39,557 nt of DNA from Burkholderiales bacterium (GCA_043775255.1 JAYVST010000369.1:1-39557); one strand, 5' to 3'; shown: positions 3,541 through 39,557, numbered from the stretch's first letter. Numbers and translations are program-made. Notes: generated by a model from the letters alone, not told the origin.

Positions 3541-3543
3541 GCT

Positions 3544-5156: not shown

Positions 5157-5285
5157 CTTTGCTGCTCCAAGCTAGCCGCGATCCACCCAGAACCCCATTA
5201 GAGTTTACCGCACCCGTATGCGCGGCATTTCACATTCTCGCCGGTAATCCGACCCATATTCCAATTCCACATTCACGGTAATCCG

Positions 5286-6425
5286 ATGCCTCCACGATCC
5301 GCGTTGCATGCCTGGCTAGGTAGACATTTCGAGCTGGCACAAGAGACCGCCGATCGCAATCTTCCGATGGAAGGCTTGCGTGGGATCGCTGTATTGCTGG
5401 TCTTTTTCGTCCACTATTCCACCGACATCCTGCCGTGGATCGGCAACGATGGCTTCACCAGCCGGCTCGCCACTGGCCTGTTCATAGTAGGAAATACCGG
5501 TGTCGATCTGTTCTTTGTCCTGAGTGGACATCTGATCTACGGCGCCCTCATATCGAAGAATCGCAGGTACCTGCAGTTCCTGGGCCGCCGCGTCGAGCGA
5601 ATCTATCCTGCCTTCCTGGCGGTCTTCGCGCTTTACTTCCTGACCAGCCTTTTCATGCCACAAGCCAGCAAGTTGCCGCAGGGGAACCTTGAATTGACGA
5701 GATACCTCGTGTCCAACATGTTGCTCCTGCCCGGCATGCTGCCGATTCAGCCACTGATCCAGGTGGCATGGTCATTGAGCTACGAATTCTTCTTCTATCT
5801 CGCCTGCCCCGTGCTGATCGCCATGCTGCGCCTGCGCATGCGCCGGTCGACGACCAGAATGGCTGCAATCGCCGCGATCAGCCTTTTGGGGTTCGGCTGG
5901 TCATTCGCGTTTGGCGCGTCGCACGTCCGGTTGGTCATGTTTGGTTCGGGCATGCTGCTGTACGAGATTTGCGCCGACCGCGACTTCAACGCGCCACGCG
6001 GCTACGGCATGCCGACACTCATGCTGGCTCTCGCCGGCTACTACCTGATGGTGATCAACAAGGCAGAGTCGGTAGCAGCGTTTGCCCTGCTGTTCGTCTG
6101 CTATTTCGCCGTTTGCCACGAGGCTTTCACACGCAACGGCCTGAGTGCAATGCTGCTGTCGGTGCGTCCATTGCGCTGGCTGGGCAACATGAGCTACTCG
6201 TTTTATCTCCTGCATGCGTTCATGATCCACGGGTTCTTCTTCGCATTCAGGCTCATCACTCCTGCGCGGGGTGATGCCGACCACCTCTACTACCTTCTGG
6301 CCGTGCCGGTCTTCCTGGTTTCGGTCGTCGGGTCCGCCTGTCTGTTCCTGCTCGTCGAACGCCCGTTCTCGTTGCAGAAAGCCGCCAAGCCGGGCGCTAC
6401 AGGCGCGTCGGGCTCCGCAGCCTAG
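5286..6425 (+). CDS. acyltransferase family 3 (OafA/WecH-like) integral membrane O-acyltransferase
   Basis: 379 aa that is hydrophobic throughout (about 10 TM segments). It has the N-terminal LEGLRGIAVLLVFFVHY signature of acyltransferase-3 proteins. It is transcribed divergently from the heptose operon. Confidence 0.82.
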   Translation: MPPRSALHAWLGRHFELAQETADRNLPMEGLRGIAVLLVFFVHYSTDILPWIGNDGFTSRLATGLFIVGNTGVDLFFVLSGHLIYGALISKNRRYLQFLGRRVERIYPAFLAVFALYFLTSLFMPQASKLPQGNLELTRYLVSNMLLLPGMLPIQPLIQVAWSLSYEFFFYLACPVLIAMLRLRMRRSTTRMAAIAAISLLGFGWSFAFGASHVRLVMFGSGMLLYEICADRDFNAPRGYGMPTLMLALAGYYLMVINKAESVAAFALLFVCYFAVCHEAFTRNGLSAMLLSVRPLRWLGNMSYSFYLLHAFMIHGFFFAFRLITPARGDADHLYYLLAVPVFLVSVVGSACLFLLVERPFSLQKAAKPGATGASGSAA

Positions 6426-6463: not shown

Positions 6464-7753
6464 TCAGTTGAAATCGACCATCGAACGGCGTCTGCGAGCC
6501 AACGTGACCACACCCCCCTGATGGATCAGTTCTGCGGGCGTATCACGCCCGAGAAACAACAACGGACTTGCCGTATAGCCGTAACTTCCGGAAGCCAGCA
6601 CGGCCAGCAGATCGCCATGCTGCGGTTCCGGAATCTCGACGTCAACACCAAGCAGGTCGGTCGGATTGCATGAGGGGCCGGCAATGCTGCACCTTATCCT
6701 GGCGGCGTTCGGTCGCGAAATATTGCGCAGCGCGAAATTCGATCTGAACGCGGCGCCGAACGTGCCCGCGGCCGTGAGATGATGATGCAGGCCGCCATCG
6801 GAAACGAAGAACGCCTTGCCGCGCGAGCGCTTGCTGCTGACCACCCGCGCGACATACACGCCCGCATCAGCCGTCAGGTAACGACCCAGTTCGAAAACCA
6901 TCTCGCGCGGCCCGCCAGGTGCGCTCACGAAGTCCTGGAACACGCGGCCAAGTTCCGCGGCCACAGGCGCCAGTTCGAGTTCACGCGCGTCCTCCGAATG
7001 CGCGACCCCGAATCCGCCACCGAGATTGACGACGCCGCAGTGAAACCCGCTGCTGCGCTCGATTTCGCCTGCAATGCGCAGGGTGTTCCGGACACCTTCG
7101 ATTACGCCGAATGGCTCGAAACACTGGCTGCCTGCATAGACGTGAATGCCGCGAAAGCGGAGTTGCCCGGTATGCCTCGCGACCACCTCGAGAGTTGCAC
7201 CGAGTTCCTCTTCGTCGATGCCGAATTGGACGGCCTTGCCGCCCATTTTCAGGCCGTAGGCGCGAATCTGCAGAACGGGATTGACGCGCAACAGGATATT
7301 CGCCTTCGTATCGGTGCGCCTTGCCATTTCGATGCATTCATCGAGTTCGCGTCGGGACTCGATGCTGATGCAGCCAACGCCCGCCCTGATCGCCGCAGCC
7401 AGCTCGGGCATGGTCTTTGCCGGACCGGCGAAGCTCAATTGCTCCCCGTCATAGCCGGCCAGCAGCGCCTGCTCGAGTTCGCCACCGGAAGAAATGTCCA
7501 GGCCATCGGCAGTGGCGCGAACGGCACGCAGAAGTGCCAGGTTCGGATTGGCCTTGACCGCGTAGTACACCTTGGCGAAGCCTGCAAACGCGTTGCGGAC
7601 CGCACCGATCTTCGCGTTGATCGCGTCCGCGTCGTACAAATAGAACGGGGTGCCATGTTCATTGGCCATCTTCTCCATCTGCTCGGCGGAAATGCCGCGC
7701 CATGCACCCGTCTTGTCGATATTCAAGAAATGCTCCTCGGCAACCTGCTGCAA
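6464..7753 (-). CDS. fold-III PLP-dependent decarboxylase (Orn/DAP/Arg decarboxylase family), exosortase-A-associated type
   Basis: 429 aa with TPFYLYD, the PLP-Lys motif YYAVKANPN, LGGGFGV, IAGPSCNPTDLL and SGSYGYTAS. The track start codon is TTG (7753). The next ATG would remove a conserved N-terminal strand, so the start stays uncertain. Confidence 0.82.
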   Translation of the reverse strand: MQQVAEEHFLNIDKTGAWRGISAEQMEKMANEHGTPFYLYDADAINAKIGAVRNAFAGFAKVYYAVKANPNLALLRAVRATADGLDISSGGELEQALLAGYDGEQLSFAGPAKTMPELAAAIRAGVGCISIESRRELDECIEMARRTDTKANILLRVNPVLQIRAYGLKMGGKAVQFGIDEEELGATLEVVARHTGQLRFRGIHVYAGSQCFEPFGVIEGVRNTLRIAGEIERSSGFHCGVVNLGGGFGVAHSEDARELELAPVAAELGRVFQDFVSAPGGPREMVFELGRYLTADAGVYVARVVSSKRSRGKAFFVSDGGLHHHLTAAGTFGAAFRSNFALRNISRPNAARIRCSIAGPSCNPTDLLGVDVEIPEPQHGDLLAVLASGSYGYTASPLLFLGRDTPAELIHQGGVVTLARRRRSMVDFN

Positions 7754-7774
7754 AGCTGCATCCGCGCTACCTCA

Positions 7775-9049
7775 TCAAATTGCATTCAAGTCGGCCCAGG
7801 TGATGCCGTCGACCCACAACTGATACTTTCGGTCGATCATGATGATCGGCTTTGCGCTTCCCTTGGCGGCGAACAGCCCGACAACTCCGTCGACCATCGT
7901 TTCGTCCAGCGTCTGCGCGGCCCCGCCGGTAAGGATGAACTGGGCGATCTTGCCGACATCCGCCGTCGGCAGTCCCGGGCCATCACCGCGCGAGAAGCGA
8001 TCCAGCGCGAGGAACAGGCAGGCGTACGAGAGAAACTGCGGGGACGGTTCGAATTCGCCCTCGCGCAACGATTGATAGGTCTGCTGGACGTCCCCGACCT
8101 GTACCACGCTCAGGAATTCGTACAACCTCGAATGCGTCCGGATTTGGAGCAATGCGCTCTCGCGGGACGCGACGATGCCCAGATCGGCGAATACATAGCG
8201 GGCGATGGATGACGTGGGCGACGGTTTGTGTTCGCTCTCGCCGCGGATGATCTCCACGGTGTAGTGCAGGTCGGTGGTTGCGCCTCCGATGTCGATCACG
8301 ACGCAGGCGCCGATGATCTTGATGGACGAGCGGTTGAATACCGCCCTTTGAAAGCCCCGATTGGCAATTTCCGGCGTCGGGCGAATGCCGCGCGACAGAT
8401 TGCCGCGCAATTCACTCACACCTTCCTTGTAGACGAGGTCGTCCAGATACGCACGCCGGATGGCTTCGAATACGGTCGGCAGGCGGCTGACAAGCGCGCC
8501 CGCAAGCGGATTGCCGATCACCGAGGCGCCGGGAAACAAGTCGACGAACATCGCAGCGAGGCTGGCATTGCCGGCATAGGCGAGTGCTCCAAAACGGTAA
8601 AGTCCGGGATCGAATTTCCTCAGACGCTCTTCCAGCGGGCCGGCATCGCCACAGTCGATTCCGCCGGCGACAATCAGGATGTCGACCTTGCTCTGGTCTC
8701 CGCCGGGCTCATCGAAATCACGCAGGTAAACCGGGTTGGCACCAGCCAGCAAGGCCTGGTTGCGGATGGCGGCGCCGCTGAAATGCTTGCTCAGACAGAC
8801 GATGCCGACGCGCAGCCCGCCGTTGGCCGAGGAGCATACGATGATGTTGTCGGAGTCGAGCGGGATCGCGAGGTCCGAGAGAATGGACTCGACCTGCGTG
8901 GCAATCCCGACCTTGAAGTCGCGCGCGAAAAAACTCTGCTCCATGAGCGAGTCATCCGCACCGACCTTGGCCACCTTGACGACGGTGGAACCGATGTCGA
9001 TGGCGACTCGGGCGGGATTGGTCGCGGCAACGGACATTGAATCTTCCAT
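7775..9049 (-). CDS. glmL: glutamate mutase accessory/reactivating protein (MutL/GlmL-like, ASKHA fold)
   Basis: 424 aa with AIDIGSTVVKV, CSSANGGLRV, ILIVAGGIDCGD and a second phosphate motif VVIDIGGATTDLH. It starts 7 nt after the glmE stop. Confidence 0.72.
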   Translation of the reverse strand: MEDSMSVAATNPARVAIDIGSTVVKVAKVGADDSLMEQSFFARDFKVGIATQVESILSDLAIPLDSDNIIVCSSANGGLRVGIVCLSKHFSGAAIRNQALLAGANPVYLRDFDEPGGDQSKVDILIVAGGIDCGDAGPLEERLRKFDPGLYRFGALAYAGNASLAAMFVDLFPGASVIGNPLAGALVSRLPTVFEAIRRAYLDDLVYKEGVSELRGNLSRGIRPTPEIANRGFQRAVFNRSSIKIIGACVVIDIGGATTDLHYTVEIIRGESEHKPSPTSSIARYVFADLGIVASRESALLQIRTHSRLYEFLSVVQVGDVQQTYQSLREGEFEPSPQFLSYACLFLALDRFSRGDGPGLPTADVGKIAQFILTGGAAQTLDETMVDGVVGLFAAKGSAKPIIMIDRKYQLWVDGITWADLNAI

Positions 9050-9056
9050 AATCGGT

Positions 9057-10463
9057 TCACATCATGATGTTTATGTCCGCAAGCAATTGCCGATAGGTCT
9101 TATCCGACGAACTGCCGCGTGCGGCAAGCAAGCCGCGCTCAGCGCGTGCGTCGTGGTCGGAAATCGGTACGTTGCCACGGTCGGCGATGCGGATCGACCC
9201 GTTCGCATCGCGCATGGAAATCAGCCGGTTGGCGTTTTCGGCATGGGGCGAGAACGGCACGTCGATGTGGCCAAGCTGGAAGGCGCGAAACACGCTTTCC
9301 CAGAACACGCTGCCGGGCATCGCGAAAATCGAATCGAGAATGCTGCGAACCTCCGACTCGATCAACACGGCCTCTGCCTCGATGAGGGGGGATGTAACCG
9401 GCTGGGCACTGCCGAAGATTCGCAGCAGATATCGGACGGTATCGACCGCCTCCGCATTGATCTCGGCGCGCGGCACGCCCAGCGCCTCGTCCACCGTCTT
9501 GACGACGATCTTGTCGGCGCCGATCAGGCTGGCCACGAGGCTGGCTCCGGATATGAGCGCGGCAGCCTTCTCCCGTTGTATCGGGAACTGCCCCATCCAC
9601 TGGTGGTAGACCAGATAGGTGCGAACATCGCCGAAGCCGAACTCGTGGAGGTAATGGTTGGTCAATTGCCGCAGGACCCTGGCCGTCGCGATATCCTGGA
9701 CCATCGAACCGGTTTGTCCGAAACTTACCGCGAATGACAGCACGCCCTGCTCGGCCGCCAGCAACGCCTCCACGATCTGAACCACGACGGCAATTGCAGG
9801 CGGAACCAGCGTGGCACTGAGCGGCCCGAAGCTTTCCCTGTGGATGGGGCGTTCCGGCGTCGAATTGAAGGCGCAGACGCGGTCGACGTATTGCCAGTAG
9901 AGCAGGCATCGATCAAGCGGAAAACCTTCCGAATACGGCAGGCAATAGCATATCCCGCCGCCTTCGATCTCGGCGATTCCGGATGCGAGTGCAACCTCTA
10001 CAAGAAGGCGCGCATCCGGCGTGCCGTGACGCAGGCTGATGGGCTTATCGATGCCTTCGAACAGCCCCCGGGTCAGGCGATAACCGTGACTTACCAGCGG
10101 ATAGCCGTTGAGATAGTTGCGCTCTTCGTCCTCGCTTCGGTGCAGGAGCTGGGTTGCGGTTTCGTACTGATTCTGGCGCGTGTAGCTGTCGATGGTGAGA
10201 GGAATGAAATCCGCACCTGCCTGGCTGAGTTGGCGCGTCAGCTGGAATTGCGACTCGTACCTGGGAAAGCCGCCACGCGGCTGAATGCAGGGTATCGCGC
10301 CGCGTTCGGCATACGCGACTCCCGGGAAGCGTCGCGGCGGCACCGCGGCGAGAAACGCGCGGACTTCGTCGGGCTCGATGCCCTGCGCGAGCGGATGCGA
10401 TGTTACCTGGGCGCGATAACGCTCGATATCCTGAAGTCGGGAACTAGCTGACGGGCGGGCCAT
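9057..10463 (-). CDS. glmE: methylaspartate (glutamate) mutase E/epsilon catalytic subunit
   Basis: 468 aa that is colinear by eye with Clostridium GlmE/MutE. Shared motifs are QPRGGF, ADFIPLTIDSYTRQNQY, LRHGTPDARLL, EIEGGGICYCLPY, FGPLSATLVPP, EALLAAEQGV, YHQWMGQFP and KIVVKTVDEALGVP. The ATG overlaps the glmS stop by 20 nt. Confidence 0.85.
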   Translation of the reverse strand: MARPSASSRLQDIERYRAQVTSHPLAQGIEPDEVRAFLAAVPPRRFPGVAYAERGAIPCIQPRGGFPRYESQFQLTRQLSQAGADFIPLTIDSYTRQNQYETATQLLHRSEDEERNYLNGYPLVSHGYRLTRGLFEGIDKPISLRHGTPDARLLVEVALASGIAEIEGGGICYCLPYSEGFPLDRCLLYWQYVDRVCAFNSTPERPIHRESFGPLSATLVPPAIAVVVQIVEALLAAEQGVLSFAVSFGQTGSMVQDIATARVLRQLTNHYLHEFGFGDVRTYLVYHQWMGQFPIQREKAAALISGASLVASLIGADKIVVKTVDEALGVPRAEINAEAVDTVRYLLRIFGSAQPVTSPLIEAEAVLIESEVRSILDSIFAMPGSVFWESVFRAFQLGHIDVPFSPHAENANRLISMRDANGSIRIADRGNVPISDHDARAERGLLAARGSSSDKTYRQLLADINIMM

Positions 10464-10878
10464 TCTTCAAATCCTTCAAAAGGTCATTGATCGCGATGCT
10501 TATATCGGGCTGCTGGTGATACACGCGGTCAAAGCCGTATTGCTTGAACAACCGCACCACCTCCGCCTGCGGGCGGTCTCCGACCACGATGTTTCCACCT
10601 ACGTAAAGAAGCGCTTCTCCCAGACCGATGGCGTTGAAACGGCTGCGAAAATCCGAACACCAATACTCACCCTCGCCGTTGAGCGATGAAACAAACACCG
10701 CGTGCGCATTGACTTCGAGCGCGGCCTGGCAGAAATGCTCCGGACGGTTGCGCGTGCGCAAATTGAAAACCTGGAACCCTGATTCCTCCAGCGCCAGCTG
10801 CATGATGCGATTGCCCACGACGTGGATATCGTCACCAATCACGCCGATCACGACACGTGCGAGTATTTCCGCAGGCAT
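10444..10878 (-). CDS. glmS: methylaspartate (glutamate) mutase S/sigma subunit, B12-binding domain
   Basis: 144 aa from the internal ATG (aa 80 of the 223-aa track ORF, 8 nt after the ligase stop). It carries the base-off/His-on motif GDDIHVVGN (DxHxxG), plus VFVSSL, LLYVGGNIVVG and GFDRVY. These are near-colinear with Clostridium GlmS/MutS. Confidence 0.85.
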   Translation of the reverse strand: MPAEILARVVIGVIGDDIHVVGNRIMQLALEESGFQVFNLRTRNRPEHFCQAALEVNAHAVFVSSLNGEGEYWCSDFRSRFNAIGLGEALLYVGGNIVVGDRPQAEVVRLFKQYGFDRVYHQQPDISIAINDLLKDLKNGPPVS

Positions 10879-10886
10879 GGGTGCGC

Positions 10887-12473
10887 TCAGGAAGGCTTGA
10901 CGGCGCGGCTGCCGGTTTCGGGATCGATCCCCAGCTTCTCGAACGAAGCCTGCTTGATCGATTTTCGATCGAGCTTGCCGGCATTGCCGGTTATCGGAAA
11001 GGCATCGAAATGGATGAAATACACCGGCACCATGTGACCGGGAAGGTTGCCCTTCAGGAATTGCTTGAGAGCATGTTCGGGGACGGGCTGGCCGTTCTCG
11101 GTGGTGTATGCGCAACCGATATCCTCGCCAACCTCGATATTCTGCACCGCGAATGCGACCGCCTCGCGGACGTCCGGATGGCGTATGACTTCGGTCTCCA
11201 CCTCCGTCGGGCTGACGCGAAAGCCCTTGGTCTTGATCATTTCGTCGCCGCGAGCGACGAAATAAAGGTAGCCTTCGTCATCGCGATAGACCTTGTCGCC
11301 GCTGAAGACAAGTGTCTCGCCCGGAAACCTCGGGTGGGTCCTGAAAACCTTGGCCGTGTTTTCCGGGTCGCGCCAGTATCCCTTTGAAACGGTGGCGCCG
11401 CGATGAACCAGTTCGCCGACCTCGTTGGGCGCGCATTCGTCACCCTTTTCGTCGAGCACCATGACCTGACAACCGGGGATCGACTTGCCGACGGACGTGG
11501 GATGGCTATCGAGTTTGTCCGGGTCGAGATACGTAGAACGGAACGCTTCAGTGAGACCGAACATCGAGAAGATACGGGCCTTCGGAAATGCCGTCTTGAG
11601 GTCCTTGAGCATCGTATCGGACAGGCGCCCGCCGGTCGAGCACACATACCTGAGGGCGGAAAAGTCGTGTGCCGCCGTCGCTATCTTCAGGCGCCGGTCG
11701 AACATCTTGGTGATGATGACCGGCATCACCGGCAAGGCGGTGATCTTTTCCTTGGCAAGGAACACAAACATGTCGTTCGGCAACGCAAGTTCGTGCAGGT
11801 ACAGCGTCGCCCCGTTGCGGATGGTCTGCCAAATCTGGTTCAGTCCGTAGTCGAAGTTGAACGACAGAACACAACCGATGCGATCGCTTTCGCTTGTGCC
11901 CAGATACTCGGACACAATGTCCGCGCCGTCGGCAAGATTGCGATGCGCAATCAGGATGCCCTTCGGGCGGCCAGTGGAGCCCGATGAATAGATGATTGCC
12001 GCATTGTCCGCGCCGATCCGGTCGAAATGGCGATTCGGCTGCATGTAACGCCGCATGTAGGCGATATTCGGCCAGTCCGCCACTACCTCCCCGCGCCCCA
12101 CGACGAGCTTGACGATGCCGGAAAATCCCGAAACCTCCTTGAGACGATCGGAATCGGTCACCATCGCCACCATCCCGGAGTTGTCGATGATGTGCCGGAT
12201 GTTGGGTTCCTTCAAACGCGGCAGTATCGGCACGACCACCCCGTTGGCAAACAGGATGCCCAGGATCACCAACACCTGATCGACCGATTTCTCCATGCAC
12301 ACGCCCACCCGGTCGCCGGTGCGGATACCCAGTTCGCGGAAGCATTCCGCCGTTGCCAAGGCGTCGTTGTACAACTCGGAAAACGTGATCGAGCGGTTGC
12401 TCGACACGATTGCTGCCTTGGTTGGCAGACGCTCGGCGGTTTCGGCGAGAAACCGGGGAATCGATCTAGGCAT
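10887..12473 (-). CDS. ANL-superfamily adenylate-forming ligase (acyl/aminoacyl-ACP or -CoA ligase), exosortase-A-associated type
   Basis: 528 aa with AAIIYSSGSTGRPKGI, GELVHRGATVSKGYW, FSGDKVYRDDEGYLYFVARGDEMIKTKGFRVSPTEVE and GKLDRKSI (A10 Lys). AGGAG lies about 11 nt upstream of ATG 12473. Confidence 0.9.
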   Translation of the reverse strand: MPRSIPRFLAETAERLPTKAAIVSSNRSITFSELYNDALATAECFRELGIRTGDRVGVCMEKSVDQVLVILGILFANGVVVPILPRLKEPNIRHIIDNSGMVAMVTDSDRLKEVSGFSGIVKLVVGRGEVVADWPNIAYMRRYMQPNRHFDRIGADNAAIIYSSGSTGRPKGILIAHRNLADGADIVSEYLGTSESDRIGCVLSFNFDYGLNQIWQTIRNGATLYLHELALPNDMFVFLAKEKITALPVMPVIITKMFDRRLKIATAAHDFSALRYVCSTGGRLSDTMLKDLKTAFPKARIFSMFGLTEAFRSTYLDPDKLDSHPTSVGKSIPGCQVMVLDEKGDECAPNEVGELVHRGATVSKGYWRDPENTAKVFRTHPRFPGETLVFSGDKVYRDDEGYLYFVARGDEMIKTKGFRVSPTEVETEVIRHPDVREAVAFAVQNIEVGEDIGCAYTTENGQPVPEHALKQFLKGNLPGHMVPVYFIHFDAFPITGNAGKLDRKSIKQASFEKLGIDPETGSRAVKPS

Positions 12474-19502: not shown

Positions 19503-21416
19503 CTACTTGTCGCTGCCTGCGGGCGCGCCCATGGCACAGCGCAGGAACGCTTCGAACATCAGAAGCGTCCAGATGGGCGTGCTGTGATCCCGCCGACCCG
19601 ATTCGTGCTGCTCGACGAGCTTCCGGATGGCGGCGGGATTGAACCAGCCGGAATCGGCCATCGGCCCGCCCAGCAGCGAATCGCGCACACGCTGCCGCAA
19701 CGGGCCACGGAACCAGCGTGTCAACGGTACCGCGAAGCCCATCTTGGGGCGGTACATGATGTCGGAAGGCAAGTACGGCTCCATCGCTCTCTTGAGCATG
19801 AACTTGCTTTCCTGCCCGCGCATCTTCAGAGCTGACGGCAGCGTCGCCAGCCACTCGACAAGGGGGTGGTCCATAAGCGGTTCTCTCACTTCGAGGGAAT
19901 GGGCCATGCTGGCGCGGTCGACCTTGGTGTTGATGTCCCCGACCAGGTAGGTATGCAGATCGATGTACTGGATCAATGCGAGCGGATCGTCGGTGTTCGC
20001 GCGGGCAGCGTGACGCGAGAACACCTCTTGCGCGGTGTAGCCGGCCAGTTCCCGCCGGAACGAATCGCTGTACAAGGCCTGGCGCTCCGCGTCGCGGATC
20101 AGGGACATGCTGTGGAAATACGCCTGCACCGAATCGCGTGCGAGGGCCTCGAACGTGGTCTTGGCACGGAATACCCGGGGCGCCCAATCGGCCTTGGGAT
20201 AGAGCCGTCCGAGCATGCCGAAAAGCGGCTTGCGCAAAGCCATTGGCATGGCACTGCGCATGTGCTCTTCCATCAGGTGCAGTTTGTAACGCCGGTAACC
20301 ACCGAAAGTCTCGTCGCCACCGTCGCCCGAGAGAGCCACCGTGACGTGTTTGCGGGCCAACTGGCAAACCCGGTAGGTCGGGATCGCGGAACTGTCGGCA
20401 TAGGGCTCGTCGTAGAGCCGAGCAAGCGTGTCGATGAGGTCAAAGTCATCGCTCTCGACCTTATCGACATGATGATTGGTGCGATAACGCTCGGCCACCT
20501 TCTGCGCGAACTGGGCCTCATCGTAGGCGGGGTCGGAGAACGATATCGAGCATGTATTGACGGGCTCGTCGGTTATGCCCGCCATCATCGCGACCACCGC
20601 GCTCGAATCGACACCACCGGACAGAAAGGCGCCCAGCGGCACTTCGGAGATCATGCGCAGGCGCACCGACTCCTTGAGTTTTTCAACCAGTTGCCCGCAT
20701 GCGTCTTCGACACCAATGATGTTGTCGAGCTTGAAGCGAACGTCCCAGTATTCACGTGGCTCGCCTACCGGCTCGCCGCGACGAATCAGCAAGGTGGAGG
20801 CGGGCGGCAGTTTCCGGGCCTGGCGGAAGATCGTGCGCGGTTCGGCCACGTATCCGAGCGCGAAATACTCCTCAACCGCCAGCGGGTCAATGTCACGTCG
20901 CAGGCCGCCGTGCGCGAGGATCGACTTCAATTCGGATCCGAACAACAGGGTGCCATCGTGCAACAACGCGTAGTAAAGCGGCTTCACTCCCAATCTGTCG
21001 CGCGCCATGAACAGCGATTCCCGATTGCGATCCCACAACACGAAGGCGAACATCCCCCGAAACCGCTCGACGCAGCGATCTCCCCAGGACTCCCACGCGT
21101 GTACGATGACCTCGGTGTCGCTACGGGTATGAAACACGTGCCCAAGCGCCTGCAATTCGGGAATGAGATCCTGATAGTTGTATATCTCGCCGTTGAAAAC
21201 CACGCAAACGGTACCGTCCTCGTTGTAAAGCGGCTGCTGTCCAGTGGATACGTCGATGATTGAAAGGCGGCGATGCCCGAGGCCCAGACCGGGTTCGACA
21301 TGCACGTCGCCCTCATCCGGGCCGCGATGGATCTGCGAATCGTTCATGCGCCTGAGCGTCGCTTGATCGATTTCGCGCTTGCCCTTTGTGTCGAACACTC
21401 CGGTGATACCGCACAT
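19503..21416 (-). CDS. asparagine synthase (glutamine-hydrolysing) family amidotransferase, exosortase-A-associated type
   Basis: 637 aa with MCGITGVFD (N-terminal nucleophile Cys2), HRGPDE and the PP-loop LSGGVDSS. Confidence 0.9.
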   Translation of the reverse strand: MCGITGVFDTKGKREIDQATLRRMNDSQIHRGPDEGDVHVEPGLGLGHRRLSIIDVSTGQQPLYNEDGTVCVVFNGEIYNYQDLIPELQALGHVFHTRSDTEVIVHAWESWGDRCVERFRGMFAFVLWDRNRESLFMARDRLGVKPLYYALLHDGTLLFGSELKSILAHGGLRRDIDPLAVEEYFALGYVAEPRTIFRQARKLPPASTLLIRRGEPVGEPREYWDVRFKLDNIIGVEDACGQLVEKLKESVRLRMISEVPLGAFLSGGVDSSAVVAMMAGITDEPVNTCSISFSDPAYDEAQFAQKVAERYRTNHHVDKVESDDFDLIDTLARLYDEPYADSSAIPTYRVCQLARKHVTVALSGDGGDETFGGYRRYKLHLMEEHMRSAMPMALRKPLFGMLGRLYPKADWAPRVFRAKTTFEALARDSVQAYFHSMSLIRDAERQALYSDSFRRELAGYTAQEVFSRHAARANTDDPLALIQYIDLHTYLVGDINTKVDRASMAHSLEVREPLMDHPLVEWLATLPSALKMRGQESKFMLKRAMEPYLPSDIMYRPKMGFAVPLTRWFRGPLRQRVRDSLLGGPMADSGWFNPAAIRKLVEQHESGRRDHSTPIWTLLMFEAFLRCAMGAPAGSDK

Positions 21417-33702: not shown

Positions 33703-33859
33703 GTATCTGAAAAAGGCAATCTGCTGGTTGTTTTCGCTCAGAAAACACATTATTTCACACCAGTCCGATGGTTCCCCGGCGCAGCAAGCCTTTAAAATCC
33801 TTTCTGTTTCGACAATCGACGCCATCGCGATACTAGACAGCTGGCGTCAGGGTCTGCCA

Positions 33860-34777
33860 ATGTTCACCACAATCATATATCGCAGTGTCTTCGCGCTGGT
33901 CTGCGTCGCGGGATGCTTGATGACGCATGCGGCCGCGCAAGGCAAGGATGCATCGGATATCGACATCGCTGCGCTTCGCTTGAGCGCGCGCTCACTTGAG
34001 CACGGTGAGGGCGTGCCAAAGGATATTCTGCGAGCTGCGGAACTTTATTGCCTGGGCGCGCGCGCCGGTGACGCGGAAGCGCAGTTCAGTCTAGGCTGGA
34101 TGCACGCCAATGCGCGCGGCGTCGTACGCAATGATGCGCTCGCCGCATATTTCTTCCGCCTTGCTGCAGAGCAGGGGCATGAACACGCGAAGCGAATGCT
34201 GCGATTTACCGGCGACACCGCTTCCGGCCAGCCGCCTTGCATGGCCCCACCTCCGGCAGCTCAGGAACCTGTACCTCAGATTGTCGAGTTGGTGGAGCCT
34301 CCGATATTGACAATGACGCCGGCGCAACAGAGGGTCGCGGATCTGCTGCACAGATTGGCTCCGGAGTATGGCGTGAGTCCCAGACTCGCTTTTGCGGTTA
34401 TTCGTGCAGAATCCAATTTCGATGCGGCAGCGGTGTCGCCAAAGAATGCGCAGGGCTTGATGCAGCTGATTCCCGAGACGTCGGCCCGTTTCAATGTGAC
34501 AAAGCCATTCGACCCGGAACAGAACATCCGGGGGGGATTGTCCTATTTGCGCTGGCTGCTGGCCTATTTCAAGGGAAGCGTTCCGCTGGTCGCCGCTGCC
34601 TACAATTCCGGCGAAGGTACGGTAAACCGCTACAAGGGAATTCCGCCGTATCCCGAGACCAGGGGGTATGTCAAGCGCATTATCGATATCTTCAAACAGC
34701 GGCAGCATCCCTTCGATCCGAAAGTAACGGATCCGTCGCCCGAGTTGGTGAAGATCCTTGCCGGCGGGACGATGTAA
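33860..34777 (+). CDS. Sel1-repeat / SLT-domain lytic transglycosylase (probable lipoprotein)
   Basis: 305 aa from the first ATG; the track start is an upstream TTG. The signal peptide has VAGC. Sel1-like repeats are present (AAELYCLGARAGDAEAQFSLGWMHANARG, YFFRLAAEQGHEHA). The SLT catalytic region reads AFAVIRAESNFD...AQGLMQLIP...AAYNSGEG. Confidence 0.85.
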   Translation: MFTTIIYRSVFALVCVAGCLMTHAAAQGKDASDIDIAALRLSARSLEHGEGVPKDILRAAELYCLGARAGDAEAQFSLGWMHANARGVVRNDALAAYFFRLAAEQGHEHAKRMLRFTGDTASGQPPCMAPPPAAQEPVPQIVELVEPPILTMTPAQQRVADLLHRLAPEYGVSPRLAFAVIRAESNFDAAAVSPKNAQGLMQLIPETSARFNVTKPFDPEQNIRGGLSYLRWLLAYFKGSVPLVAAAYNSGEGTVNRYKGIPPYPETRGYVKRIIDIFKQRQHPFDPKVTDPSPELVKILAGGTM

Positions 34778-35548
34778 ATGCATTCGGCCCCGGCAGCGGC
34801 TTTGGCTTTGTCAATCGCGCTTCTTGCTGGACCACGGTTTTCTCTGGGAGCTGACCTTCCAGACATCGTCGAACGCGTCAAGCCTTCCATCGTCGCCGTA
34901 GGCACGTACAAGTCGACCGATGCACCTGCTTTCCGAATGCGCGGTACCGGATTTGTTGTGTCCGACGACAACCTGGTAGCGACCAACGCACACGTCGTCG
35001 CGGAGCCCCCTGACACCGCAAACGGCTCGAATTTCGTCGTGCGAGTCCGCCTTGCCGGCAAGACCGAGTTGCGTCGCGCGCGCGTCGTAGCGACGGCTCC
35101 GGAATTCGACCTCGCGCTGCTACGCGTCGAAGACGGCGGCTTGCCTAGGCTTGCGCTCAGGGATTCGGGCACAGTGCGTGAGGGTCAGGGCGTCGCATTC
35201 ACCGGGTTTCCGATCGGTAATGCGCTGGGTTTCGCGCCGGTCACGCATCGCGGCATCGTGGCGGCGATTACGCCAGTGGCATTGCCTGGGGGCACGGCGC
35301 AGCAGCTTAGCGAAAAGCTGGTTCGACGCCTGCGGGCAGGCAGCTTTGACATTTTTCAACTCGATGCGACCGCCTATCCTGGCAACAGCGGCAGCCCCTT
35401 GTACGACGTAAGCAGCGGCGAAGTCGTTGGCATCATCAACATGGTGCTGGTGCGCGGGACCAGGGAGGCGGCGCTGTCGCAGCCATCCGGGATCGCCTAC
35501 GCGGTACCTGCGAATTACCTTGAGGAGTTGATTCGCAGCGTCCGCTAG
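34778..35548 (+). CDS. secreted trypsin-like (S1/S1C-type, no PDZ) serine protease
   Basis: 256 aa with a signal peptide. The triad contexts are VATNAHVV (His), EFDLALLRV (Asp) and YPGNSGSPLYD (Ser). The ATG abuts the SLT stop (TAAATG). Confidence 0.85.
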   Translation: MHSAPAAALALSIALLAGPRFSLGADLPDIVERVKPSIVAVGTYKSTDAPAFRMRGTGFVVSDDNLVATNAHVVAEPPDTANGSNFVVRVRLAGKTELRRARVVATAPEFDLALLRVEDGGLPRLALRDSGTVREGQGVAFTGFPIGNALGFAPVTHRGIVAAITPVALPGGTAQQLSEKLVRRLRAGSFDIFQLDATAYPGNSGSPLYDVSSGEVVGIINMVLVRGTREAALSQPSGIAYAVPANYLEELIRSVR

Positions 35549-35713
35549 CAGCCTGTCGGACTTGGGGCGTCGAACGCGAAAATCGGCCCCAGCGAGGACA
35601 GTTTTTGCCGCCTTCTTGCCCCATAGCCCGGCTATGGGGCAAGAAGGCGGTGAAAAATGGACCGCTGCGGCCGATTTGCAGCAGACGCTCCCCAAGTCCG
35701 ACTGGCTGCTAGC
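35544..35713. mobile_element. ~170-bp palindromic MITE/REP-like element, copy 1
   Basis: It has 24-bp terminal inverted repeats, gctagcagcctgtcggacttgggg and ccccaagtccgactggctgctagc, matching at 23 of 24 positions. The arms are imperfectly complementary. The central stem is 21 bp, ccgccttcttgccccatagcc/ggctatggggcaagaaggcgg (35608..35650). A second copy sits at the window end. Confidence 0.65.
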
Positions 35714-36815
35714 CCGCACCCGCAGTCACATCATCCTTCTCGCGCGAGCGGCGCCAAAGCTTGTATGCAAGATGACGTACAAGCATCGGCATCGGCATCC
35801 TGAACCAATGTGCCCGCAAATAGAGCAGAAGAAGTGCAAGCCGTGTTCCGCGGTATTCGGCAGTCGGATGCGGCGTGCGCAGCGCGCGGATCCAGAGCGT
35901 ATCCATCAAGGGCCCAAGCATTATCGGAGGGCCCATATTGCTTGCCGCCGGCAGCTTCGTTGGCGGAACGGCAACACCGAATGTCCGCGTAACATGCCGC
36001 AGGCCGTAAAAAAGCGGTCGGCCCAGCCCCAACGCCGTCGCGCGGGCCGCGAGGCGATCCCAAAAGTCACGTTCCCGCCCGAAGTGCCGCAAGAGGATGT
36101 CGATGTCGGACAAATCGCGCAGTCCATGACTGAATTCTTCGTTGAAAAACAGGTGCGTCATGCTGTGCAATACCATATCTGCGGGTGCGAGCACGAAAGC
36201 ACCCGGCAACCCTTCGACCGGAACCGCGTCGGCCAGAAGTTTGCTGGCGTCGGCTGTGCGCCGCGCGGTCTGCGGGAGTATCGAATGGTGGATGTCTAGT
36301 ACGGTGCCGCGCCTGCTGTGCTGCATAGGCGGCAGTTCGTGCATCCAGTCGCGATAGTAACGCTGGTCGTATGCGGCGTGGTGCGTCATCGCCCAGCCCG
36401 CCACCATCAAGCGCGTTTCGACGACCGGCAGGTCGCCCTTGGGTACCAGGATGTCGATGTCTGAAAATAGCCTGCCTTTGGCGGCTGGCACGCGGCCCAG
36501 CAGGTATCCCGCTCCCTTGAGGAACACGACCTTGACCCCTGACGATTGCAGCCCTCGCATGATAAGGACTGCTTCGCGCCAGACCTCATTGTGTTGCGCT
36601 CGCGCAAGCGCAATCTCTGCCTCAAGATGGCCCGCCGGGGCCGCCGGAACGGAACACGTTTGCCCATGTTCCCTGACCGATTCGGCGATGCGTGCAAGCA
36701 AGCCTGCCGTGCGCGCCTGTCGGACTACAACATCCCAATCGCCAAGGGACATTGCCGTAGCCGAACCCGGTTCACGCAACAACGGGACCACGCGGTCGCC
36801 TGCCAAGCCCTTCAT
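35709..36815 (-). CDS. Pol-beta-fold nucleotidyltransferase (uncharacterised NTP_transf_5-like family)
   Basis: 368 aa from the internal ATG (aa 31 of the track ORF), which overlaps the kinase stop as ATGA. The NTase signature is VVFLKGAGYLLGRVPAAKGRLFSDIDILVPKGDL (G-x-G ... D-x-D). YYRDWMHELPPMQHSRRGTVLDIHH follows. Confidence 0.78.
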   Translation of the reverse strand: MKGLAGDRVVPLLREPGSATAMSLGDWDVVVRQARTAGLLARIAESVREHGQTCSVPAAPAGHLEAEIALARAQHNEVWREAVLIMRGLQSSGVKVVFLKGAGYLLGRVPAAKGRLFSDIDILVPKGDLPVVETRLMVAGWAMTHHAAYDQRYYRDWMHELPPMQHSRRGTVLDIHHSILPQTARRTADASKLLADAVPVEGLPGAFVLAPADMVLHSMTHLFFNEEFSHGLRDLSDIDILLRHFGRERDFWDRLAARATALGLGRPLFYGLRHVTRTFGVAVPPTKLPAASNMGPPIMLGPLMDTLWIRALRTPHPTAEYRGTRLALLLLYLRAHWFRMPMPMLVRHLAYKLWRRSREKDDVTAGAG

Positions 36816-37738
36816 TTGCGGCCCGCCGCACATTCCCCGGCCAGCCTGTCGAACACTTCGACCGCATCTTCCAGCCTGCTGTAAGTGAACTCGTAGCAGT
36901 CGCATTCATCGATCAATGCCGCAAATTGGTCGAAGGCACGCGCCCCATGAATATCGAAATTGAACCCATTTTCGACCAGATGCATGAACGCCCTTGCCCG
37001 GCCAAGGGGCTCAAGCCGTGCCGTCGCGCCTACGGCGTATCGGGGCAGCACCAGCCACCGGGGCCGCGTCCGCTCATGCTGCCGCAGTACGCTGTCGGCA
37101 GGCGGACACATGTGGGCCACGCTTCCCTTGAGCGTGTCGTGAACCGTCGGGCTGAAGCGTGCTGCGGGCGCGAAACGCGCAATGACCTCAATCGACTTGT
37201 TTTTCAGGCTGACCGGCCGCGGAACCGGAACAAGGCTTCCGTCCGCGAAGTCGATGACTGCGAGTTCGTCGGACAGCAAGCGCCACCCGGAATTGACAAG
37301 GCAGGCGCACAGCGTACTTTTTCCGGAACCAGGCGGTGCGGGAAAAATCGCTGCTCCCCCGTTTCGCTCCACGACCGCCGAATGAACGATCAAATATTGA
37401 TGGCAATGGCTCGTGACGCACCAGTTCATGCCCCATTCGAATACTGGGAATGCCTGATCGGCTGGCAACGGATTGAAGGTGGTATTGACGTCACAGCGGA
37501 ACACTACCTGTGGCCGGACCAAGGCACGGATGCTCCCCGGACGCTCGACAGTCACGTGGAAATCGGAAAACCCGTCTCCCGGTTCGACTGTATGGTTGGC
37601 ATAGTGGAGCTCGATGCCCGCAGCGACCAGTTCGAGCGTCGAAAACACGCGACTCACCACAGGGCCGGTACGCAAGCACAACCCGGGATCCGCCAGTCGC
37701 TTGCGCAACGCGCGGGGGCCCAATTCCGATAGTATCAA
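36812..37738 (-). CDS. HprK-related kinase (HPr kinase C-terminal-domain-like P-loop protein; kinase A type of the HPr-rel-A system)
   Basis: 308 aa with the P-loop FPAPPGSGKSTLCACL, followed by GWRLLSDELAVID and PVSLKNKSIEV. The TTG start overlaps the PqqD-gene stop (TTGA). Confidence 0.78.
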   Translation of the reverse strand: MILSELGPRALRKRLADPGLCLRTGPVVSRVFSTLELVAAGIELHYANHTVEPGDGFSDFHVTVERPGSIRALVRPQVVFRCDVNTTFNPLPADQAFPVFEWGMNWCVTSHCHQYLIVHSAVVERNGGAAIFPAPPGSGKSTLCACLVNSGWRLLSDELAVIDFADGSLVPVPRPVSLKNKSIEVIARFAPAARFSPTVHDTLKGSVAHMCPPADSVLRQHERTRPRWLVLPRYAVGATARLEPLGRARAFMHLVENGFNFDIHGARAFDQFAALIDECDCYEFTYSRLEDAVEVFDRLAGECAAGRK

Positions 37739-38079
37739 GAGGAGACGCGTTCCACAAAGCCGATTCTTTCGAATTCTAGCAATGTGGTACGCAAAAGGTC
37801 GCGAACGGCATGGTCAGGGGCCTCCGCAATCGCACCTTTGCTTGCTTCGGCCGGCACCAGCAAGGTCTCCAAAGCTTGCAGTGAAAGGGCGGAATGCGCT
37901 TCGAGAAACGTTTGAAACACCACTGCACCGACGTCACTGAGCAAGTGGGTATTCCCGGTAGCGGGAACCAGGACCACCACTTCGCCATCCCACTCCCGCC
38001 AACGAAGTCTTTCGGGCGCCGACAACGCCCAGGCACTCGAATACGGATCGATCAGTGCGTCTGCGTCGCTCAGGCCCAC
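37735..38079 (-). CDS. PqqD-family (RiPP-recognition-element-like) small protein
   Basis: The C-terminal ~100 aa of the 185-aa track ORF read RLRWREWDGEVVVLVPATGNTHLLSDVGAVVFQTFLEAHSALSLQALETLL. This is the PqqD-type beta-strands plus helices pattern. The long form overlaps the upstream gene by more than 200 nt. I provisionally use the in-frame GTG at 38079; a CTG overlapping the upstream TGA is an alternative, so the start is uncertain. Confidence 0.62.
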   Translation of the reverse strand: MGLSDADALIDPYSSAWALSAPERLRWREWDGEVVVLVPATGNTHLLSDVGAVVFQTFLEAHSALSLQALETLLVPAEASKGAIAEAPDHAVRDLLRTTLLEFERIGFVERVSS

Positions 38080-38765
38080 GTACTGCAAAGGTAGCCGTTG
38101 ACGCCACCGCAAACCGCGCTGGGCGGTTGCGCGCTGGAAGGCGTGGTGGTCGAGTGGTACCACTTGACACCTGCGGTCGGCTCGTAGAACCCCCCTGGAG
38201 TCTTGGTTTGCAGGAACATCCATCGAACTTGGGCCACGCTGTGGATGCCATTGACCAGACCACCGGCCGCATTGACGTGCGCGGCAATGCAATTCTGGGC
38301 GAGTTTGAGGGCATCACTTGTGCCCGTGAGCTTCAGCGCGGTTTTCATGCGGGTGTTGTCGTCACACGCGACAGGCAGGCCGGTAGTCGGGTCGTTACCC
38401 GAAATGCCGCTCATGCAACCGGCACCCCATGCAGCGGAACACTTGATCGAAACCCAGGCGTTGTTCACATATTCGCGACAATTCGCCGGCCACGAGGACG
38501 AAGACGTTCCCTTCCACGTGGTCGGGCTGCTACCGCTGGAGGTGATCAATATGCCGGCGCGGCTAACGTGTACGGTACTGGCTGGATGCGAAGAGAATCC
38601 CGATGCGGTCGTGGTCAAGGTAGCCAGCGCCGGACGACTGACCAAAGTCAAAGCAACGGGAACAGCGCCAATGCCCAACTTTAATACACGTCGCCGCTTT
38701 GCAACAAGCGCATCGCGCTCGGCGTTCTTGCCGACATCTCCGTTGCAATCCTGAAAATCAGCCAT
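38070..38765 (-). CDS. Tat-signal secreted protein, Ser/Thr- and Cys-rich, no recognisable family
   Basis: 231 aa with GGAG about 9 nt upstream of ATG 38765. The twin-arginine motif is KRRRVLKLG, followed by the h-region IGAVPVALTLVS and the cleavage context RPALA. The mature part has TLTTTASGFSSHPAS, SSGSSPTTWKGTSSSSW, HSTTTPSS and 7 Cys. Confidence 0.62.
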   Translation of the reverse strand: MADFQDCNGDVGKNAERDALVAKRRRVLKLGIGAVPVALTLVSRPALATLTTTASGFSSHPASTVHVSRAGILITSSGSSPTTWKGTSSSSWPANCREYVNNAWVSIKCSAAWGAGCMSGISGNDPTTGLPVACDDNTRMKTALKLTGTSDALKLAQNCIAAHVNAAGGLVNGIHSVAQVRWMFLQTKTPGGFYEPTAGVKWYHSTTTPSSAQPPSAVCGGVNGYLCSTWA

Positions 38766-39135
38766 GGCGCAAACTCCAATAAATGTACTTCAATCCCGAA
38801 GCTGGATTCTAGCCCGAACCAAGCGTATGGCACGGTAAGGAAACGTTAAATCAACCACAATGCCGTAGCAGTCCAAATCTTCCAGCGATTGACGCAATTA
38901 ACGCACCACTTCGGAATTGTTTATTTTTCCTCTTTTAAATCAATAATTTACAAAGTTATACAGAAGTTTTCTCAGCCTGCAATCAAGGTCGCGGACGGTG
39001 AATGTAAAATTTTTCGACAACTATTGGCTACACGTTCCAGAGAATATCGACCGATTGTGCTGATTCCGAAGCTCGTTATCGTAGCGGCGCGACATGCGCT
39101 TATTCGTGCTGTAACCTGAAGACCAAAGGCTTTGA

Positions 39136-39261
39136 TCGTTGAGCCGACGCAACAAGAATGCAGCGGCGGTAGCGCTGGCAAACAAGAACGCCCGCACCGT
39201 CTGGGCGCTGTTGGCAAATGCTCGGCACTCCCAGGCCGACTATGAACCTGCGGCGGCATGA
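39136..39261 (+). pseudogene. 3-prime remnant of an IS110-family transposase gene
   Basis: The open frame SLSRRNKNAAAVALANKNARTVWALLANARHSQADYEPAAA* has no start codon. It matches the conserved C-terminal helix (..AAVALANK.AR..WALL..) that I recall for IS110-family transposases. AARHALIRAV lies in another frame just upstream (about 39085..39116), which suggests a frameshifted, truncated relic. Confidence 0.5.
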
Positions 39262-39277
39262 ACACGGGTTGCCCACA

Positions 39278-39318
39278 GGCGCTCACCACACAGCGTGATA
39301 GGCGCGCTGGTGAGCGCC
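39278..39318. repeat. stem-loop just downstream of the transposase remnant
   Basis: The stem is ggcgctcacc ... ggtgagcgcc (10 bp), with an inner cagcg/cgctg pair. It begins 17 nt after the remnant stop codon. It may be an IS terminal structure or a terminator-like hairpin. Confidence 0.45.
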
Positions 39319-39456
39319 CATGGATAACCCTGCGCCATCCCCGTGCGACGACACAAACTTCGTAGAGGAGGCCCTCCACCGATTGCTCAGGCAATCATGA
39401 CGTGATGGCAAGACTGGTCAGACCGTGGTCGAACAAATCCGATAGCAGCCTTGCGC

Positions 39457-39557
39457 CTAGCAGCCTGTCGGACTTGGGAATCGTCGGCTGCAAATCGGCC
39501 GCAGCGGTCCATTTTTCACCGCCTTCTTGCCCCATAGCCGGGCTATGGGGCGGCGAA
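39457..39557. mobile_element. palindromic MITE/REP-like element, copy 2 (cut by the window end)
   Basis: It begins ctagcagcctgtcggacttggg, the same terminal repeat as copy 1. It then has a 31-nt exact match (ctgcaaatcggccgcagcggtccatttttca) to the reverse complement of the copy 1 right arm. The same ccgccttcttgccccatagcc core follows. Confidence 0.6.

Follow-up and report, generated by a model that had tools for sequence, protein, structure and literature searches.

Enzyme trios made up of a PqqD-type protein, an HprK-related kinase and a nucleotidyltransferase-fold protein are catalogued in NCBIfam as the HPr-rel-A system (TIGR04352 and TIGR04353, with PF14907), with no substrate named, and our open-literature searches on the HPr-rel-A system found no relevant paper. 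What, then, do these enzymes act on? The question is raised anew by a stretch of 39,557 nucleotides from a Burkholderiales bacterium (GCA_043775255.1 JAYVST010000369.1:1-39557; henceforth the window, meaning this whole stretch), in which four tightly packed co-directional genes occupy the minus strand from 38765 to 35709. The first encodes a 231-residue protein with a signal of the twin-arginine translocation (Tat) type, and the following three encode a PqqD-family protein, HprK-related kinase A and an NTP_transf_5 nucleotidyltransferase. A preliminary description of this DNA had rightly pointed to the catalogued, substrate-less trio and had named the adjacent Tat protein as its client. Here we argue that the four genes probably form a self-contained module in which the first product is the substrate of the other three, its Tat signal doubling as a leader in the style of peptides that are ribosomally synthesized and then modified post-translationally (RiPPs), a reading that draws on sequence patterns and on analogy to characterised systems.

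The three enzymes assigned to the trio in the preliminary description are recognisable by their families and motifs. The kinase matches TIGR04352 (HprK_rel_A) with 386.6 bits (cutoff 200) over 279 of the 280 model positions and carries the P-loop PPGSGKST; the best solved relatives of its profile are the HPr kinase/phosphorylases 1jb1 and 2qmh, matched in the P-loop region at E of about 0.06. The nucleotidyltransferase, with the motif GAG...DIDIL, scores 187.3 bits against PF14907 (gathering score 31.2) and has no solved relative by sequence, and the PqqD protein matches its model below the cutoff (see below). With the window kinase above its cutoff, PqqD and nucleotidyltransferase genes in the canonical order and overlapping junctions, the locus is, judged by these protein families, an instance of the HPr-rel-A system. 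It differs from the catalogued trio in having a constant fourth gene, and such a gene, encoding a Tat-type leader and invariant serines, appears to be what is new here. Read directly, the kinase and nucleotidyltransferase genes meet in ATGA at 36815..36812 and the PqqD and kinase genes in TTGA at 37738..37735, both as described before, and the TTG start of the kinase yields MILSE..., in agreement with homologue starts (MIV...). The remaining overlap, of the PqqD start with the client stop, had been reported with equal firmness but is only plausible on sequence grounds: the candidate GTG start at 38079 overlaps the client stop (GTGGGCCTGA), family conservation starts 10 residues later, and an internal TTG at about 38025 is the alternative. 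The overlaps ATGA, TTGA and GTG...TGA indicate co-translation units.

Naming the Tat protein as client predicted that its homologues should be linked to the trio in other genomes, and we examined this from both sides. For the kinase side, we took a single genome from each species and, with the kinase alignment as query, found a kinase relative in at least 552 species, and the best 80 of these at least 552 relatives were analysed; these are the kinases nearest the query (49-63% identical, 63% being the closest among the species-level genomes scanned) and not a random sample, and their loci span Beta-, Gamma-, Alpha- and Deltaproteobacteria. In 77 of the 80 loci the client profile matches a co-directional open reading frame (ORF) whose end lies about 300 nt ahead of the kinase; in the three others the DNA reaches under 250 nt upstream, making 77 of 77 testable loci positive. 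Wherever upstream DNA exists, a PqqD ORF fills the gap between client and kinase (after one profile iteration), and the nucleotidyltransferase gene follows the kinase gene in 80 of 80. When all ORFs of these kinase-anchored loci were clustered against one another, client, PqqD, kinase and nucleotidyltransferase were the only universal genes, and no protease or transporter belonging to the cassette was found in them. On the client side, eight of nine looked-up homologues (27-47% identity) directly precede a PqqD-kinase-nucleotidyltransferase set, and the ninth lies on a short degenerate contig with transposases, where only the PqqD gene is kept. The four-gene order is beyond chance, recurring in every comparable locus examined, and the co-occurrence of client homologues with kinase A and PqqD that the preliminary description had proposed to check is borne out from either side. 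Candidate culturable carriers are Noviherbaspirillum denitrificans, Duganella sp., Sulfuricella sp. T08, Malonomonas rubra and Vibrio alfacsensis.

The first gene product itself agrees with its earlier account as a Tat-type protein. Its N-terminus reads KRRRVLKLG...VALTLVSRPALA, with a mildly hydrophobic h-region, a basic residue in the c-region (SRPALA) and an A-x-A-type site; seven of its eight Cys lie past the signal, and 25% of the mature part is Ser or Thr. Tat signals are characterised by textbook features of the n-, h- and c-regions, namely the twin arginine, a moderately hydrophobic stretch, a basic c-region residue and an A-x-A-type cleavage site, and by these features the client N-terminus qualifies as a predicted twin-arginine signal. 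We scored conservation in two sets, one of 63 client-family sequences, of which the kinase scan anchors 59, and one of 103 sequences gathered with the family profile. R25, S55 and S59 are invariant in the first set, and R24, R44, S68, W92, A162, N165 and G169 are at least 90% conserved. In the second, T40, S43, R44, S55, S59, S68, P81, W92, N165, P196 and W202 are invariant, R24/R25 are conserved at 99%, L41 and P45 at 98% or more, and two Cys flanking the serine motif at 96%. Mean conservation across the 103 sequences is 3.84 bits in the c-region, 3.73 in the RRR motif, 2.91 in the h-region and 2.34 in the C-terminal domain; the h/c region of the leader (T-L-x-S-R-P; V-x-L-T-L-x-S-R-P-x-L-A) is more conserved than the folded domain of the client.

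The family consensus runs S-R-R-[RK]-[LF]-x-x-x-G-L-A-x-S-x-V-x-L-T-L-A-S-R-P-V-L-[GA] through the signal and x-x-C-x-[ST]-P-S-[GA]-F-x-S-G-N-x-S-x-H-G-x-P-x-x-C-x-G-R-[ST]-P-G-Y-W-K after cleavage, and past a variable linker the C-domain shows H-x-V-A-A-L-L-N-A, G-Y-F-E-P-T-A-G-V-x-W and Y-L-x-x-T. A spaced serine motif, S-x3-S-x3-S, is found in 156 of 164 sequences, mostly starting 9-10 residues past the c-region xRP, and in the client S55, S59 and S63/S68 sit 7-20 residues beyond the predicted signal-peptidase site. The window client is atypical: both near-invariant flanking Cys are missing from it, and an insertion of five residues precedes its third serine. In secreted proteins, no part is normally less conserved than the signal peptide. 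We reason that a signal as hyper-conserved as that of the client must have a reader of higher specificity than the translocon, and the overall pattern, in which the signal and the following serines are kept while the cargo varies, is what a leader/core substrate would show.

Other readings of the segment past the signal fit less well. A lipoprotein was rejected since the post-signal Cys is usually preceded by NQC, VVC, TVC or QQC contexts that do not fit a lipobox, and in the window client this Cys is missing altogether. A formylglycine motif of the sulfatase type was also set aside, the family having C-x-[ST]-P-S and not C-x-P-x-R. As a separate observation, S-G-N-x-S contains an N-x-S sequon (residues 59-63/68) like those used in N-glycosylation, but its Asn is not invariant, being present in 84% of the family and Pro in the window client; no glycosyltransferase is encoded in the four-gene cassette.

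Conservation far above that of usual signal peptides is typical of leaders read by RiPP recognition elements (RREs), and the same pattern could arise if the N-terminal segment were a RiPP leader that merely resembles a Tat signal, with a product that is cytoplasmic or exported otherwise and a leader that is not cut by signal peptidase. We consider this unlikely, however, since the twin arginine (99%), the mildly hydrophobic stretch of 15-20 residues, R44 (100%) and the A/G-x-A/G-type site are all retained, the cassette is without a protease or transporter of its own, and the Cys pair flanking the serine motif in most members suggests a disulfide outside the cytoplasm.

A further view of what is kept and what varies comes from distant systems, for which the evidence comprises about 20 loci, fewer than in the near set. 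A tblastn search against plasmids found kinase A proteins 37% identical in Vibrio alfacsensis and 34% identical in Sphingomonas parapaucimobilis. RefSeq names the kinase and the nucleotidyltransferase in both loci and the PqqD chaperone in that of Sphingomonas, the gene before the trio is a 'hypothetical protein' in both, and neither locus is near polysaccharide genes. The Vibrio upstream protein matches the client profile only over residues ~30-135, with SRRRFIRS...LLSIKSPSAWA followed by C-S-I-T-S-C-M-S-G-N-A-S...P-D-Y-W. In the Sphingomonas type, which also occurs in three further loci (L101-L103), only the signal matches the profile (SRR.L.LGA....V..VRPALA), and it is followed by QTAGSVLNC and an unrelated small domain. 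In both systems, other sequence stands where the client has its cargo domain.

A metagenome scan built on the distant kinases gave the same picture, each strong kinase-A locus that has sufficient upstream DNA containing an ORF with a twin-arginine leader directly upstream. Two of these loci, L113 (~925-1164) and L133 (~3245-3430), have precursors of ~40-80 residues, with the leader RRRIIIT.LL.PPAVMTL and a core of ~20 residues, before a PqqD gene and a kinase A-like gene; judged by leader and gene order, both are clients the size of peptides in systems of this type. The phrase 'non-peptide-sized client' in the preliminary description is accordingly apt for the 231-residue protein of the window but does not extend to the system as a whole. 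Clients can also be duplicated, as precursors are in RiPP clusters: L142 has two in tandem before PqqD (4001-4630 and 4930-5865, the second with a long Ser-rich insert), and in L140 the second of two copies (4001-4789 and 7105-7857) lies past the nucleotidyltransferase gene. With the leader kept, the cargo interchangeable and the precursors short or duplicated, the pattern is that of a recognised substrate.

These observations bear on a different account, in which the twin-arginine protein is a co-regulated partner, perhaps a periplasmic one that binds or uses what the trio makes, and the trio has its target elsewhere, in an unlinked peptide, in PEP-CTERM proteins or in a molecule other than a protein. 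We find it improbable. A substrate elsewhere would suit the roughly one third of loci that adjoin exosortase A (XrtA) polysaccharide genes and the PEP-CTERM proteins encoded near some cassettes, and the known HprK-like RiPP kinases prefer a C-terminal Ser, the client ending in ...CSTWA. Against this stands the strict direct adjacency of client and trio in all testable loci, also outside polysaccharide contexts, and no other gene is universally linked. Moreover, a cargo that is swapped while leader and serines are kept fits a recognised substrate and not a fixed partner, and a fixed partner sits equally badly with the short precursors and the duplicated clients.

If the signal is the leader, the PqqD protein is the candidate reader. 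All 57 of 57 positional PqqD orthologues match TIGR04353 at E<0.01 (best 7e-20), and a profile built from them finds as best matches in the PDB TfuB1 (6jx3_B, E=0.0035) and TbiB1 (5v1u_A, E=0.025), and also the lasso PqqD chaperone 9x90_B; the E-values of these PDB matches are modest. By profile comparison, the closest solved relatives of the PqqD protein are thus lasso leader-binding proteins. An RRE-fold protein related to leader binders, and a conserved leader with a variable core encoded beside the enzymes, are the features by which RRE-dependent RiPP systems are recognised, and the cassette, as read from its sequence, has both. Apart from this, a plasmid of Methylobacterium tardum (L099, 4413-5564) encodes a 383-residue protein that matches both the PqqD and the kinase profiles and looks like a natural PqqD-HprK-like fusion; its annotation reads 'PqqD family peptide modification chaperone', and close by, on the opposite strand, is a gene for a nucleotidyltransferase.

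A small binding protein next to a Tat substrate has a familiar counterpart. TorD, DmsD and NapD are small proteins encoded beside Tat substrates, and they bind the signal until cytoplasmic maturation is complete. The cassette likewise pairs a Tat substrate, one with a hyper-conserved signal, with a small dedicated protein from a neighbouring gene, and this likeness allows the account that PqqD is mainly a Tat-signal proofreading chaperone and that phosphorylation is a reversible export gate, for which the highly conserved S43 in the c-region would be at hand. We give this account little credence: the nucleotidyltransferase is universal and so speaks for an additional covalent step like that of PsmN (see below), the serines invariant in both sequence sets lie past the cleavage site, and the nearest relatives of PqqD are RiPP leader binders, not Tat chaperones. 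TorD, DmsD and NapD belong to an unrelated fold family and serve cofactor insertion, whereas we propose covalent modification of Ser.

Among characterised RiPPs, the nearest parallel is offered by phosphorylated and phosphoglycosylated lasso peptides. There, HprK homologues (PadeK for paeninodin, PsmK for pseudomycoidin) phosphorylate the C-terminal Ser of the linear precursor, and the attachment of one or two hexoses to this phosphate requires PsmN, an 'uncharacterised nucleotidyltransferase' whose catalytic motif is DxD. Common to both are a leader binder of the PqqD type (B1 in the lasso systems), an HprK-like kinase for Ser and a DxD nucleotidyltransferase, PsmN being likened by its description. 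By contrast, the window cassette is without a lasso cyclase, B2 protease or ABC exporter, its client is a 231-residue folding protein with a Tat signal and not a peptide of ~40 residues, and the candidate serines lie near the mature N-terminus and not at the C-terminus. In line with the absences claimed in the preliminary description, neither a lasso cyclase nor a lasso B2 (transglutaminase-like) protease was found among the large window ORFs scanned with NCBIfam. The sole gene resembling an Asn synthase (19503..21416, ~15 kb away) is the XrtA amidotransferase TIGR03108 (1084 bits), and with the lasso cyclase model NF033535 its product reaches 264.7 bits, short of that model's cutoff of 525. 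The cassette is not a lasso cluster, because the cyclase, the B2 protease and the short precursor that define one are missing from it.

Bufferins, which are RiPPs modified by MNIO enzymes, provide a parallel of another kind, being small folding proteins with Sec signals that are modified in the cytoplasm before export. They share with the client a general-export signal in place of a dedicated leader and transporter, but they use Sec, MNIO/DUF2063 proteins and Cys-to-thiooxazole chemistry where the present cassette has Tat and PqqD, kinase and nucleotidyltransferase; no MNIO (DUF692) or DUF2063 partner was found among the window ORFs scanned with NCBIfam or Pfam. The SynChlorMet cassette also pairs an HprK-like P-loop protein (ScmC, TIGR04249) with a PqqD-like one (ScmD, TIGR04248), and Pfam labels the kinase in client-homologue loci PF27840 ScmC. 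SynChlorMet is, however, built on radical-SAM/SPASM enzymes and short peptides, and the window proteins give weak cross-matches to its models, far below the cutoffs (25.3 bits against 125).

Putting these parallels together, we propose that the client is synthesised carrying a twin-arginine signal at its N-terminus, which would also serve as a RiPP-style leader. The PqqD-type protein would bind the conserved h/c region of this signal and present the adjacent disordered segment, in which kinase A would phosphorylate one or more of S55, S59 and S63/S68. The NTP_transf_5 protein would then add a further group to the phosphoserine, a hexose by analogy to PsmN, or a nucleotide. The modified, folded client would exit via Tat, and signal peptidase would remove the leader, so that no dedicated protease or transporter would be needed. 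What the preliminary description had said of the client holds in part: the predicted linkage is there from both sides and in distant systems as well, while the chemistry (phosphorylation, nucleotidylation or glycosylation), its timing relative to export and the dependence on Tat are things we infer from analogy. In its fullest form, with the signal read twice, once by PqqD as a RiPP leader directing Ser phosphorylation and a phospho-linked addition and then by the translocon, and with clients ranging from ~20-residue cores to 300-residue proteins, the proposal is one that we put forward tentatively, as a possibility.

Several points weigh against this proposal. The lasso kinases characterised so far modify a short peptide at its C-terminal Ser and not a 200-residue protein at internal serines, and a near-invariant Thr near the client C-terminus (T229) offers an alternative site. 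The window PqqD scores 27.8-29.5 bits against TIGR04353 over the full model length, below the cutoff of 35. Collecting the 103-sequence alignment by profile can inflate apparent conservation, and in the kinase-anchored set the only N-terminal residues conserved at 90% or more are R24, R25, R44, S55, S59 and S68. Finally, the bufferin signal peptide is dispensable for modification, and the signal therefore need not be the recognition element; in the client, however, no part of the protein is as conserved as the signal.

The family to which the client belongs is large and unnamed. A direct protein search with the 231-residue sequence returned nine matches among 5.8 billion proteins, the word filter limiting sensitivity. 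Profile searching found at least 718 client-family clusters at 90% identity, all of them unnamed or 'hypothetical' and without a Pfam domain, and an exhaustive hidden Markov model search of 1.84 billion representatives (50% identity clusters) gave 3,625 matches at E<=1e-3, 1,663 at E<=1e-10 and 321 at E<=1e-30. No NCBIfam model matches any of 103 family members, and a Pfam scan of the same 103 gave only two chance-level matches (E ~0.007). An AlphaFold2 (AF2) model computed from the 103-sequence alignment has a mean pLDDT of 78.6, with values mostly above 90 for residues ~75-231; residues 1-50 are disordered in it, and the serine segment has low pLDDT values of 52-64. Neither a Foldseek search of the PDB with this model (E<=0.001) nor a sequence-profile search of the PDB with the family found a match. 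Separately, an 808-residue protein (P0136) has six stretches that match the family profile, all in the cargo-domain part, and may represent a version of this domain with several repeats.

With a constant fourth gene identified, what was an orphan set of enzymes becomes a system open to testing, in which three enzymes face a single client with two to four candidate serines. If the proposal is true, this would be the first RRE-guided pathway with a Tat signal as leader, and recognition of the RiPP type could act on whole folded proteins, not only on peptides. It would also define a large new family (the 3,625 clusters at 50% identity given above) whose cargo-domain model is without a PDB neighbour, and the mature proteins would gain a modified N-terminal tip, for example as a handle for attachment to matrix polysaccharide. 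The system may also matter for the matrix biology of flocs and biofilms in Betaproteobacteria, in which an XrtA/PEP-CTERM polysaccharide locus is often found next to the cassette.

Table 1. Features of the four-gene cassette and its flank, with positions counted from the first nucleotide of the window.
Feature	Position	Strand	Remarks
Client gene	38070..38765	-	231-aa ORF, Tat-type signal, unmodelled family
Signal/leader, client residues 1-48	38622..38765	-	long n-region, RRR (24-26), h-region, c-region SRPALA
Serine motif ASGFSSHPASTVHVS, client residues 55-68	38562..38603	-	candidate modification sites S55, S59, S63 or S68
Client folded cargo domain, residues ~75-231	38073..38543	-	AF2 model
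PqqD-family protein (RRE type)	37735..38079	-	114 aa if the start is GTG 38079; inside ORF 38292..37735
HprK-related kinase A	36812..37738	-	308 aa, TTG start overlapping PqqD stop
P-loop PPGSGKST, kinase residues 135-142	37313..37336	-	invariant in kinase alignments
NTP_transf_5 nucleotidyltransferase-fold protein	35709..36815	-	368 aa, in-frame ATG at 36815
Weak sigma-70-like promoter candidate	38806..38833	-	GTGCCA-16-TAGAAT, 9/12 matches, upstream of client gene
Terminator-like hairpin and T-run	35660..35672	-	37 nt past nucleotidyltransferase stop, within repeated element
PDZ-less HtrA/trypsin-like protease	34778-35548		between cassette and export gene; recurs in 14/63 loci
Sel1-repeat/lytic-transglycosylase (SLT) protein	33728-34777		between cassette and export gene; recurs in 11/63 loci

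The coordinates of the cassette and its flank are collected in Table 1. The promoter match upstream of the client gene is a candidate only, because shuffled sequence gives as many such matches, and the hairpin is no more than a candidate operon end, because the count of hairpins is not above that in shuffles. As the preliminary description had it, the minus strand at 38766..39090 contains no ATG-initiated ORF of 20 residues or more.

The rest of the window is a canonical XrtA/PEP-CTERM polysaccharide locus, with genes for PEP-CTERM export, a chain-length determinant, a tyrosine kinase, TIGR03016, an ATPase, a deacetylase, FemAB, stp1/stp2, XrtA, an amidotransferase and an O-ligase. XrtA-type export and chain-length genes lie within ~6 kb of the cassette in 21 of 63 loci; a polysaccharide context is common but not defining, because it is present in only these. 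We therefore rejected the polysaccharide locus as a defining partner, the Vibrio and Sphingomonas contexts being unrelated as well. The envelope or matrix role that had been read from the adjacent exosortase locus is plausible from adjacency in this window, where the mature client may be linked to the neighbouring XrtA/PEP-CTERM system, but not as a defining feature of the cassette.

The four genes and their upstream spacer are bracketed by a 95-nt inverted repeat (35618-35712 and 39457-39551, 96% complementary), each copy of which contains a 30-nt palindrome of its own (35599-35659) and a terminator-like hairpin. Since the window stops 6 nt past the second arm, the assembly may have been broken by the repeat. 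Despite the repeat, a mobile cassette is unlikely, the same four genes being found elsewhere beside the same trypsin-like, Sel1/SLT and export genes. At ~39145-39444 lies what is left of a transposase gene of the IS110 family (83% identical in DNA to an annotated IS110 transposase from a plasmid of Polaromonas naphthalenivorans), the short ORFs of which had no match in Pfam, and a 66-nt piece at ~39376-39441 matches unannotated DNA of hundreds of enterobacterial plasmids at 85-90%. An Rfam scan of the window found no RNA family.

Two further gene sets belong to the XrtA locus. At its far end, 2854-5156 encodes a GDP-D-glycero-D-manno-heptose set (HddC-like, GmhA and HddA-like). Inside it, at 6464-12473, are four genes that include methylaspartate (glutamate) mutase subunits S and E and a GlmL-like accessory protein, beside exosortase-A-associated genes for a PLP decarboxylase-like protein (TIGR03099) and an acyl-CoA ligase-like protein (TIGR03098), both below cutoff; the genes of this interval suggest an unusual decoration derived from a branched amino acid.

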